Sequence record: PV189404.1
Source: Escherichia phage vB_EcoP_phi346
Reading direction: 5' to 3' (one strand)
DNA: 63,554 nucleotides
Shown piece after piece: positions 15,001-18,000 of the stretch. The position numbers were made by a program. Position 1 is the first letter of the stretch. The number at the start of each line of letters is the position of its first letter.

Positions 15001-18000
15001 TAGATAAGGTCTTGGTTATTAATACATCAGTATATGATTAGTTGAAGCGAGTCTTTAATATTCATTTAAAATGTCTAAAAAGATGTATTATTAAAAAGTT
15101 TAGCGTGTTATCTGAATACAGGATATCTTAAATGAAGAGTATAGCAACACTGGTTGTGTGTGCAATCTCCGGGATTGCCTGTGTAAATTTATCTGCACAT
15201 GCAGCAGAAGGAAACCATACAATTTCTCTGGGGTATGCGCACTTTCAGTTTCCGGGACTGAAGGATTTTGTAAAGGATGCGACTGCTCATAACAGGGAGA
15301 CTTTCAGTCATTTCGTCAACAGAAACTACTTTTCTTCATTGGGCGAATATACAGATGGTCGGGTCAGTGGATATGAAGGCAAGGATAAAAATCCACAGGG
15401 CATTAATATCAGGTATCGCTACGAGATAACGGATGATTTTGGCGTTATCACCTCTTTTACATGGACGCGTTCTCTCACTAACTCACAGACATTTATTGAT
15501 GTGCAGTCAGCCGATCATACCAGGAAGATTAAGAATCCGGCAGCTTCTGCCAGAACGGATATCAGGGCGAATTACTGGAGTCTGTTAGCGGGGCCTTCAT
15601 GGCGGGTTAATCAGTACATGAGTTTATATGCGATGGCAGGGATGGGCGTTGCTAAAGTTAGCGCTGACCTGAAAATTAAGGACAATATTAACAGTAGTGG
15701 CGGATTTTCTGAAAGCAACAGCACGAAAAAAACCTCCCTTGCGTGGGCTGCAGGTGCACAGTTTAACCTGAATGAGAGTGTTACACTGGATGTGGCTTAC
15801 GAAGGTTTCGGCTCTGGCGACTGGCGCACGAGTGGCGTTACTGCTGGCATTGGCCTGAAATTCTGACCTGTATCCGGTAACCGTTTACTACCCGCTGTGA
15901 TGGCGGGTTTTTTATTGCCCGTACAGGGCAAAAACCGTAAATTATGCGTGGGTGCCTTTCGGCTGATGGCTGGAGGGTGAACCTGAAGGCCTGATGTGGA
16001 AAGGCCCCGAGTCAACTTAACGTTAACCCGAGGCCCTAACACTTCGTACCTTAAGCAAGTAGAAGGTTAGCGCCTCTCTGTAAAAGGAGTCAAGCGCTAT
16101 GTCGCAAAAATCGCTTATCACCGTCACAATTTGCATGACGGTTATCTTCACCATCTGGATGTTGCACGGTTCACTGTGTGAGTTCCGGCTGAATTTGTGG
16201 GGAGCGGAGTTTGCGGCGTTCTTACAGTGTAAGCAGTAGGAAAACCGCGACGGGGACGAGAGTCCCCGTCAACTGGTTGCTGAGGTTCAGCCGATATGGC
16301 ACCCGTTTCAGGTGAGAGAATGAACGATAAAATTCTCTGGTATATGCAGCGTGTTGTGAGAAATTCCCGCAACCCTGAATTTATGAATGAAGTTAAAGAC
16401 GCCTGCCTTAAAAAGCAGGCGTTTTGTTTTGAGGCACCTGATGGCTTTTTGGTGCTGCGTTCTGTGCTCAGTGCTGATGGTATCCCTTATGTTCTGGTGT
16501 TGCTGGGCGTGTGTACGGGGAGTAACAGCGTTGAGCGTTACCTGCCGGAGGTGAAGACATTAACCCATCTGGCTGGCGGACGCTGGGCTGAGTTCCATAC
16601 GGCAAGGCGGGGATTTATCCGGCTGGGAAAACGACTGGGCTTTGAGCGAATGCCGGATGATGAGGATGGCTTCATGGTGTTCAGGATAGCGGTCTGACTG
16701 CTACAGTTTTCATCATTGTGTTTAAACCAACATTGTAATTCACATTCTGACCCTGCTCCGGCAGGGTTTTTTGTTATCCAGGGGGCCATTATGGGTGGAA
16801 GTAAAGGCGGTGGTGATACCAAAGTAAAACCAACAGCAGCGCAAATAGCACAGGAAGAAGTGGCCTGGAAAGGGTGGCAGGATTACAAAAATATCCTCCG
16901 CCCGGCTGAAGATAACTTCATGGAAAAGGTCGATGACCTGAACAGTGAGCAGCAGTACGACAATATTGCTGGCACCACAAATCTGGGGTATCAGAAACAG
17001 TTTGGCGAAGCACGGAAGGAGCTTGCGGGTAATCTTGCTCAGTCCGGCGTTGACCCATCCAGTGGTCGTTTTAATGCGGTAATGAATGCGAACCAGAGTG
17101 ACCAGGTAACCGGGCAGATTGACACAACCACACGGGGGCAGGTATCGCAGGCAGATAAGTATGTTGCCGGGCTACAGGATGTTGCTGCTCTCGGTTCTGG
17201 TCAGAAGGCGGATGCGTTACAGAGTTTTAACTCTCTGGCAGACAGCAGTCTGGCAAAAGCTAAATCGGATGCACAGGCGGCGTTTACGAAACAGCAGGGG
17301 CGAGCCTCTCTTGTTGGCGCTGGTCTGGGTGCGGCAGGTGCATATGCGATGCATAAGGCTGGCGGTAGCGGAGGAAGTGGCGGTGCTAAAACACCTGGCA
17401 CCGGCGCTAATGCCATTCAGCATCAGGCTCAGAACTGGAGACTGTAATTATGGAGTATGGCAAATACGAAACTCTCGCAAGGGCTGGTTATTCAGGAGCA
17501 GACCGCCCACAGGGTGACTGGCAGACGTCAGCAGCGCTGACACGCCAACAATACGACGACTGGCGAACCAGATATTTGCCCCGCGTGGCAAGGCTGGCTG
17601 ACCTTGGGGAGAACAACAGTCTGATGAATGCACAGCTTGCACGGGTGGGAGGCCTTGCCACTTCCAGTCTCCGTACAGCGCAGATGGCGCAGGATAACCA
17701 GATGGCGAGATACGGGGTAAACCGCCCGGATAATCCCGACAGTAATACGCTGGGGTTACGTAATGCCCTGGCAATTGCTGGCGCGAAAAATGGTATCCGT
17801 GAAGCCGAACAGGATCGCCAGATGAATATTCTGACGGGGGCTTCTGCACCGGCAAGACAGAAACTGAGTGTTGGCGGCCAACTGGTGGCAGCGTAAGGGG
17901 GCAATATGGGATACGGTTTACTGGATATTGCAAATCAGTCGCGGCGTGAGGCATTACAGGGAATAAGTGACGCAGACAGACGACGTGAAGAAATTGAGGC

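Follow-up and report, generated by a model that had tools for sequence, protein, structure and literature searches.

A probable hok/sok-type toxin–antitoxin cassette downstream of lom in Escherichia phage vB_EcoP_phi346

The toxin gene and the extent of the cassette

Hok/Sok loci are the founding type I toxin–antitoxin (TA) systems. Here we characterised a hok-type locus in Escherichia phage vB_EcoP_phi346 (record PV189404.1), analysed as one stretch of 63,554 nucleotides (nt) that we call the window; coordinates refer to it unless another sequence is named. A first-pass annotation, made by inspecting the sequence, had proposed a Hok/Gef-family type I toxin locus in the tail region next to lom, and this proposal was borne out at the levels of protein, predicted RNA anatomy, and existing annotation and literature. 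The toxin gene is the 46-codon open reading frame (ORF) with a ribosome-binding site that had been noted then, located at 16099-16239 on the plus strand, with the Shine-Dalgarno (SD) sequence AAGGAG (16084-16089, plus strand, read from the sequence) 9 nt before its ATG.

The encoded protein of 46 aa, MSQKSLITVTICMTVIFTIWMLHGSLCEFRLNLWGAEFAAFLQCKQ, carries the N-terminal hydrophobic stretch (residues about 5-23) and the following SLCEFR...AAF signature already recognised by eye, and its assignment relies on Pfam, PHROG, RefSeq and identity with a cloned peptide. It matched the Pfam family PF01848 (HOK_GEF) with 33.2 bits, above the gathering score of 22 (E = 4e-8), with residues 8-44 aligned to positions 6-42 of the 42-position profile, and PHROG 251 ('MokW-like host killing') at E = 2.8e-24. 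RefSeq annotates the same ORF as a Hok/Gef family protein (WP_000078907.1), other sources also use the Hok/Gef name, and the exact sequence stands at the head of a 110-member cluster seen on at least 1,000 contigs. Alignment with HokA-E, Hok of R1 and HokW showed residues C12, T14, E28 and E37 to be invariant and the L-C-E motif to be present; these four residues are conserved positions in the Hok logo of a recent preprint (Escalera-Maurer et al. 2026, bioRxiv 10.1101/2025.08.07.668861).

According to the same preprint, which catalogues 1,264 Hok peptides, the identical 46-aa peptide is entry 72_1589 of Table S2, belongs to a high-abundance cluster (cluster 72) and was cloned as LRP157 under an arabinose promoter. 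A second entry of this cluster, 72_1621, corresponds to a P2-prophage variant that we found in several of the sequences fetched for comparison, which are numbered with the prefix L (L003, L009 and others), and both entries were cloned for toxicity assays. The preprint text reports 42 of 45 cloned Hok homologs as toxic and names only 19_179, 60_1482 and 69_1540 as non-toxic, which implies that 72_1589 is toxic on overexpression. The locus is therefore already known, being annotated in current databases and having its peptide catalogued in the preprint. That analysis, as its text describes it, was deliberately confined to the Hok coding sequence and left Sok, Mok and mRNA structure undefined, so that the RNA anatomy given below does not appear there.

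The closest named toxin is HokA of E. coli K-12 (43% identity, with a shared ...FTxWM...SLCE...AAFLxCK pattern), and one source gives the name HokA to the protein itself. The best NCBIfam match was likewise HokA (NF007290), at 38.4 bits against an equivalog cut-off of 89; such scores mark the toxin as HokA-related rather than as a HokA orthologue. Since IS150 cuts the leader of K-12 hokA, the RNA elements of that gene are not comparable with those described here.

For comparison, 68 unique modules were gathered, mostly from IMG/VR, and 69 sequences were aligned. The toxin ORF was intact in 67 of the 68 modules, with a ratio of non-synonymous to synonymous substitution rates (dN/dS) of 0.2-0.6 and the greatest variation at third codon positions, indicating that it is clearly under selection. 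Invariant columns made up 58 of 141 positions in the coding sequence (CDS) and 81 of 149 in the leader.

The conserved unit proved larger than the interval first delimited (15960-16290), which cuts both ends and leaves most of the fold-back element outside. Homology began at the promoter and stopped exactly at GGCACCC in every genomic context fetched, and the recurrence of these boundaries in unrelated contexts identifies 15915-16304, from the promoter through the last base of the fold-back element, as an autonomous cassette of ~390 bp. Its upstream neighbour is lom (15132-15866; Ail/Lom outer-membrane gene, Pfam PF06316), after which a terminator scan placed a terminator-like hairpin at 15890-15908, directly before the putative hok promoter. 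The gene downstream has no assigned function (PHROG 610), and its annotated start (ATG 16296) overlaps the fold-back element; because alignment to the PHROG 610 profile starts no earlier than residue 9, ATG 16320 is the likelier start. The cassette has the same orientation as the neighbouring structural genes.

The region is 100% identical to the Shiga toxin (Stx)-converting phages 933W, VT2-Sakai/Sp5, PA2 and vB_EcoP_phi349, and many O157:H7 chromosomes carry it identically. The phi349 match occupies 15860-16320, just as in the window, and the 933W counterpart lies at about 45421-45881; in the original 933W record of 1999, the gap between lom and L0129 is empty.

Predicted hok mRNA and Sok-like RNA

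A putative hok promoter was read from the plus strand, with a -35 box TTGCCC (15915-15920), a 17-nt spacer and a -10 box TAAATT (15938-15943); the pattern TTGCnn, 17-nt spacer, TAnATT is kept in most other genomic contexts of the module. Conservation, together with homology to the annotated sokW, was the basis for assigning this promoter and that of the antisense RNA (below). The predicted full-length hok-type mRNA spans 15950-16304 on the plus strand (~355 nt), its ends being set by homology and by the start of the Rfam sok/hok-leader model at 15950, at the same GGGTGCC in the relatives as in the window. The full-length RNA folds at about -155 kcal/mol (-155.4 for 15950-16310; z = -6.2).

At the extreme 5' end lies a tac-like element, GGGUGCCUUUCGGCUGA (15950-15966, plus strand), which has three mutually exclusive predicted partners. 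It is essentially invariant in the 69 aligned modules, an invariance that is partly built in, since 68 of them were recruited by an exact match to the 17-mer at 15950-15966. The first partner is a fold-back-like (fbi-like) element at the 3' end, UCAGCCGAUAUGGCACCC (16287-16304, plus strand), which would close the full-length mRNA onto 15950-15966. This closure comprises 15 pairs in the minimum free energy (MFE) structure of the window RNA, and a 5'-3' closure occurred in the MFE structures of all 12 relatives folded. Across the 69 sequences, 92% of alignment cells in the tac-fbi helix were paired, compared with 30-51% when the 3' partner was slid by 1-3 columns; changes on the fbi side were wobble-compatible only, one pair, for instance, being GC in 30 sequences and GU in 38.

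The second partner, at 15968-15984 (+19..+35, plus strand), was identified by folding the nascent RNA: the first 43 nt form a putative metastable hairpin (-18.4 kcal/mol, z = -2.6) in which 94% of cells were paired versus 33-61% in slid controls, with only GC to GU changes. The third is a ucb-like box, GUGGAAAGGCCCC (15996-16008, +47..+59, plus strand), predicted to pair with the 5' element once the 3' end has been removed. When 38 nt were taken off the 3' end in silico, the 5' end re-paired with +47..+59 in 11 of 12 relatives, and the corresponding 5' domain of 61 nt has a folding energy of -32.4 kcal/mol (z = -5.3). The tac/ucb helix is 99.7% paired and, being invariant, offers no covariation evidence either way. 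Equivalent tac/fbi, tac/ucb and metastable states have been described by Le Rhun.

Between the hok stop codon and the fbi-like element, the 3' untranslated region (UTR) contains the hairpin GACGGGGAC-GAGA-GUCCCCGUC (16249-16270, plus strand), which the first-pass annotation had likened to the hok fold-back element. The hairpin itself is real, stable (-19.7 kcal/mol, z = -4.75, with none of 200 shuffles folding as well) and covarying (99.8% of cells paired, with compensatory double changes in 4 of 9 pairs); it is not the fold-back element, however, which begins 17 nt beyond it. In R1 and hokW, too, a GC-rich hairpin directly follows the stop codon and fbi comes ~35-40 nt later, at the 3' end. 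By analogy, we infer that processing to the active mRNA stops at the hairpin at 16249-16270, which would form its 3' end.

Two further readings of the mRNA were set aside. The same hairpin was rejected as an intrinsic terminator, as the plus strand has no U-tract and the terminator scan flagged the minus strand only. Partition-function estimates gave a rise in accessibility from full-length to truncated RNA at the hok SD (0.19 to 0.38) and the AUG (0.24 to 0.56); these values are not relied on, because the R1 and hokW controls were not reproduced as expected.

On the minus strand, a Sok-like RNA of ~58 nt is predicted from about 16057 to about 16000, with ends taken from the annotated sokW of 933W. 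It lies within 15960-16100, where such an RNA had been expected, and could be delimited there, contrary to the earlier view that it was not definable by eye. Its putative promoter (minus strand) consists of a -35 box TTGACT (16093-16088), an 18-nt spacer and a -10 box TAACCT (16069-16064), from which the strand continues with TCTACT and then T/G at 16057/16056. The complement of the -10 box, AGGTTA, was invariant in the 69 sequences, and a TTGnnn -35 box stood at 17-18 nt spacing in every module where one was located. In 933W, the same TAACCT precedes the annotated 5' end of sokW by 6-7 nt, and sokW ends in GGGGCUUU.

The predicted fold of the Sok-like RNA comprises a free 5' tail of 15 nt (16057-16043) and a 16-bp hairpin (16037-16001). 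It folds at -30.0 kcal/mol (z = -4.5), versus -15.1 kcal/mol (z = -1.5) for the sense copy of the same interval, and the antisense hairpin was the more stable in all 23 variants compared (mean difference -8.4 kcal/mol). This strand asymmetry arises because G-U pairs of the antisense RNA become C-A mismatches in the sense strand. Opposite it, the hok leader is predicted to form a sokT-like target hairpin (16030-16076, plus strand; -19.9 kcal/mol, z = -3.7), whose 9-nt loop CUUAAGCAA (16050-16058) finds its complement in the free tail of the Sok-like RNA. The lower stem of this hairpin is paired in nearly all 69 sequences, with changes from GC or AU to GU, and the hairpin is the counterpart of one in the consensus of Rfam family RF01794.

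Comparison with Rfam, which had been named as a check on the locus, gave a divided answer. At the gathering threshold, no hok/sok family matched in the window. In a permissive local search over 651 nt, the sense-leader family RF01794 aligned over its full length to 15950-16112 (E = 2.4e-6), at a score below the gathering value. As controls, the same model scored 113.5 bits on hokW, 87.2 bits on R1 and R1-like sequences, and 46-51 bits on cluster-72 relatives. On alignment and score, the window leader is a divergent relative of the RF01794 family.

Known relatives and genomic contexts

The best-studied comparator is hokW-sokW of Sp5/933W (Takada et al. 2021, PMC8621323), which resides in the same kind of Stx phage and was characterised experimentally as a type I TA system dependent on RNase III and Hfq; it speeds lysis and doubles phage release after mitomycin C. 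Features common to both loci are GGGUGC... at the 5' end, a GC-rich hairpin behind the stop codon, GCACCC as the last bases of fbi with no terminator beyond, and TAACCT as the sok -10 box, which in the window is putative. The shared phage family, together with the label 'MokW-like host killing', used both by the phi349 record and by PHROG 251, could suggest that the window locus simply is hokW-sokW. We consider this to have practically no chance of being correct, as the identity is refuted by sequence. HokW has 51 aa, begins with MKQQKAM and falls in a HokD/HokC-like cluster, whereas the window toxin has 46 aa and belongs to cluster 72; the two share 33% identity in the multiple alignment and 37% over 35 residues by BLASTP. 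The hokW-sokW locus lies at 58460-58734 in 933W, 13 kb from the counterpart of the window locus. It is absent from the window, as are the published hokW primers when up to 3 mismatches are allowed. In addition, hokW has an annotated mokW with an ATG in the 5' arm of its target hairpin, and the window locus has none. Only short fragments of the hokW flanks occur in the window (34206-34444 and 37920-38034), which therefore holds one hok cassette where 933W holds two.

The likeness to hok/sok/mok of R1 is one of architecture: a Hok-fold toxin, the tac/fbi closure, the tac/ucb switch, a metastable 5' hairpin, a 3' hairpin before fbi, and a Sok-type RNA (predicted in the window) that combines a free 5' tail with a long hairpin and targets the loop of a leader hairpin. 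The two differ in protein sequence (28% identity), in the absence of mok from the window, and in being phage-borne and plasmid-borne, respectively.

Related copies of the cassette (77-92% identity) were found in 1,750 of 5,426 complete E. coli genomes. Their boundaries are the same in each of four unrelated kinds of mobile element. In 933W-like phages (L001, L002, L012), the cassette follows lom. In P2-like prophages, it comes after ogr at the prophage end (L003, L004, L007-L009) or, in one further case, downstream of the tail genes (L010). A lambda-like prophage has it between J and the gene for the tail fibre (L006), and a non-phage island carries it next to a ykgM-type L31 gene (L005, L011); the island copy of the O157 strain NE92 (L005) neighbours urease genes. 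The preprint text describes hok as four-fold enriched in prophages, with 3.5% of hok-carrying phages having two copies (bioRxiv 10.1101/2025.08.07.668861).

This spread of contexts bears on how the locus is expressed. It might be transcribed mainly by late phage read-through, with Q-antiterminated transcripts crossing lom and placing a long 5' extension on hok; as the lytic cycle ends, Hok would then serve as an auxiliary factor in lysis. Such a scheme would fit the orientation of the cassette with the structural genes and the effects of the paralogous hokW-sokW on lysis and release. We nevertheless rate it as very improbable, because the cassette's own promoter and its 5'-end-dependent folds are kept even at the ends of P2-like prophages and in the non-phage island, which argues that an autonomous, sok-gated mode is what is conserved. 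Read-through would in any case add a role to the sok-gated mechanism rather than replace it.

Several variant arrangements were observed alongside these copies. Two IMG/VR contigs carry tandem hok cassettes 455-720 bp apart: in one (L162:5545-6361) the two encode different Hok variants, and in the other (L092:4318-5401) the peptides are identical and the leaders alone differ. Five sequences (L079, L096, L101, L117 and L137) combine the same invariant 5' leader with another toxin N-terminus (ATGACGCAAATTCCG..., MTQIPLK...). Leader and toxin thus appear to evolve semi-independently. A 17-mer scan of genome contigs returned 61 matches, mostly by chance, of which three carried the module: one each from Salmonella enterica and E. 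albertii, and one labelled Vagococcus. The last, from Vagococcus sp. WN89Y (Firmicutes; L055:5802-6163), holds an E. coli P2-type copy and is probably an assembly contaminant. In strain NE92, a STAXI RNA (134 bits) and a near-threshold EFASI match (L005:5058-5209 and 5685-5838) were seen ~2 kb downstream of the island cassette.

Other RNA features were noted elsewhere in the phage. Two pairs of C4 antisense RNA and isrK exceed the Rfam gathering scores on the minus strand (32073-32255 and 45341-45528) and suggest duplication of a P1/P7-type regulatory RNA module. After three tRNA genes comes STnc100 (plus strand), directly abutting AsxR (minus strand) (55137-55385, 56794-57053); AsxR being an anti-stx2 small RNA family, this region is presumably stx2-proximal. 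An ALIL pseudoknot (121.5 bits, 35322-35438) lies at the 5' end of a 296-aa ORF (35364-36254), and we take it to be the frameshift signal of an IS3-family insertion sequence within the phage.

A leader without canonical mok

The first-pass annotation had also expected a mok-like leader, and this expectation failed: the window has no canonical mok. Its only leader ORF is a candidate of 24 codons with a GTG start (15996-16070, plus strand; stop TAG 16068-16070), which is not conserved, ends 28 nt before the hok ATG, and is a truncated counterpart of a mok-like frame that is open in some relatives. In the window, neither the 5' arm nor the loop of the target hairpin contains an ATG, GTG or TTG, and hok cannot be extended 5' in frame because of a TAA at 16081-16083. 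In 21 of the 68 modules, a long leader ORF continues past the hok ATG, without exception in the frame one base ahead of hok; in 17 (the window included) the ORF ends 0-32 nt short of the ATG, and in 30 at an earlier point. For R1, we take the ATG at the position equivalent to the mokW start as the presumed start of mok, and by our reading of the R1-like sequence its frame relative to hok would be the same as that of the 21 long leader ORFs. Close relatives differ in the leader ORF, indicating that the leader frame is not under selection, and we conclude that this hok cluster does not conserve mok coupling.

A number of results weigh against the view that the window holds a complete and functional cassette. 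Within the window, no start codon stands at the annotated mokW position or at the presumed R1 mok position, and a conserved leader ORF was sought across the 68 modules and not found. R1 strictly requires mok to be translated as far as the hok SD, so that a copy without mok, such as that of the window, could be translationally silent. The RF01794 match reached 35.6 bits against a gathering score of 59. A promoter consensus scan with a 9-of-12 threshold found no match for hok or sok on either strand; the hok promoter agrees with the consensus at 8 of 12 positions and is missed for that reason. There is no intrinsic terminator 3' of fbi. No compensatory double changes were found among the 69 sequences in the long-range helices (tac-fbi, tac/ucb and the metastable hairpin); with their 5' partner invariant, the evidence for them consists of one-sided, wobble-compatible changes and the slid-register controls; moreover, nearly all modules (68 of 69) were recruited through the 5' element itself. 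Support for toxicity comes from the text of the preprint rather than from a per-clone figure. Both the hok mRNA and the Sok-like RNA are known here from sequence, and a literature search for published transcript evidence of the window's antisense RNA in enterohaemorrhagic E. coli gave nothing specific.

The points concerning mok would be explained if the locus were a decayed, translationally silent hok relic, from whose native transcript no toxin would be made. A silent hok has been proposed likewise for several chromosomal loci of K-12, where hokA itself is disrupted by IS150, and stop codons introduced into R1 mok upstream of hok abolish toxicity; the missing start codons, the TAA at 16081-16083 and the early end of the leader ORF all fit this account. 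We consider it unlikely, however. The ORF remains intact, under the constraint described above, across four kinds of element, and the non-coding control elements match or exceed the CDS in conservation; a silent relic would have lost one or the other. Furthermore, modules without a long leader ORF form the majority (47 of 68), so that the absence of mok is the norm of the family rather than a lesion of the window copy. Taken together, we regard it as very probable that the locus is a complete hok/sok-type type I TA cassette, carried as a moron by a 933W/PA2-like Stx phage and distinct from hokW-sokW.

If this cassette works as R1 hok/sok and hokW-sokW do, the full-length hok mRNA would be inert, and slow trimming of its 3' end back to the hairpin at 16249-16270 would turn it into a form both translatable and able to bind Sok. 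The short-lived Sok-like RNA would then engage this form through the contact between target loop and 5' tail, and RNase III would cut the duplex so that no toxin is produced. Should Sok synthesis stop, because the prophage is lost or induced or because an infecting phage shuts off the host, Hok would be made and, again by analogy, would depolarise the inner membrane.

In the absence of a canonical mok, translation of hok would proceed either by direct access to its own AAGGAG or by way of the short leader ORF. An anti-SD-like CUCU (16076-16079, plus strand) precedes AAGGAG and forms a local CUCU/GGAG hairpin with it in the MFE structure; when the alignment is read by eye, the relatives too show a recurrent CUCC or CUCU tract directly before GGAG. 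In the window, this tract is adjoined by the stop codon of the leader ORF. We entertain, as less likely than not, the idea that cluster 72 works without mok in one of two ways: through pure RNA refolding together with RNase III cleavage of the target hairpin, or through a non-conserved leader ORF that acts by its stop TAG at 16068-16070. In the latter case, the stop would park a ribosome on the anti-SD tract at 16076-16079 and thereby free the hok SD.

Candidate roles for the cassette are prophage retention, exclusion of other phages, and help in lysis as for hokW. For this part of the genome, our analysis supplies the RNA-level annotation that databases lack, namely predicted mRNA ends, fbi, Sok-like RNA and promoters. 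At the level of the phage family, the findings mean that Stx phages of the 933W/Sp5 type can have two hok cassettes, the studied hokW-sokW and the one described here, so that studies deleting hokW only, in which release was halved (Takada et al. 2021), may underestimate the contributions of Hok; in the window, from which hokW-sokW is absent, the uncharacterised cassette is the only one. If mok-free control is confirmed, it would represent a variant regulatory logic in a textbook antisense system, and the existence of a widespread hok cluster without a conserved mok bears on how general the supposedly obligatory mok coupling is.

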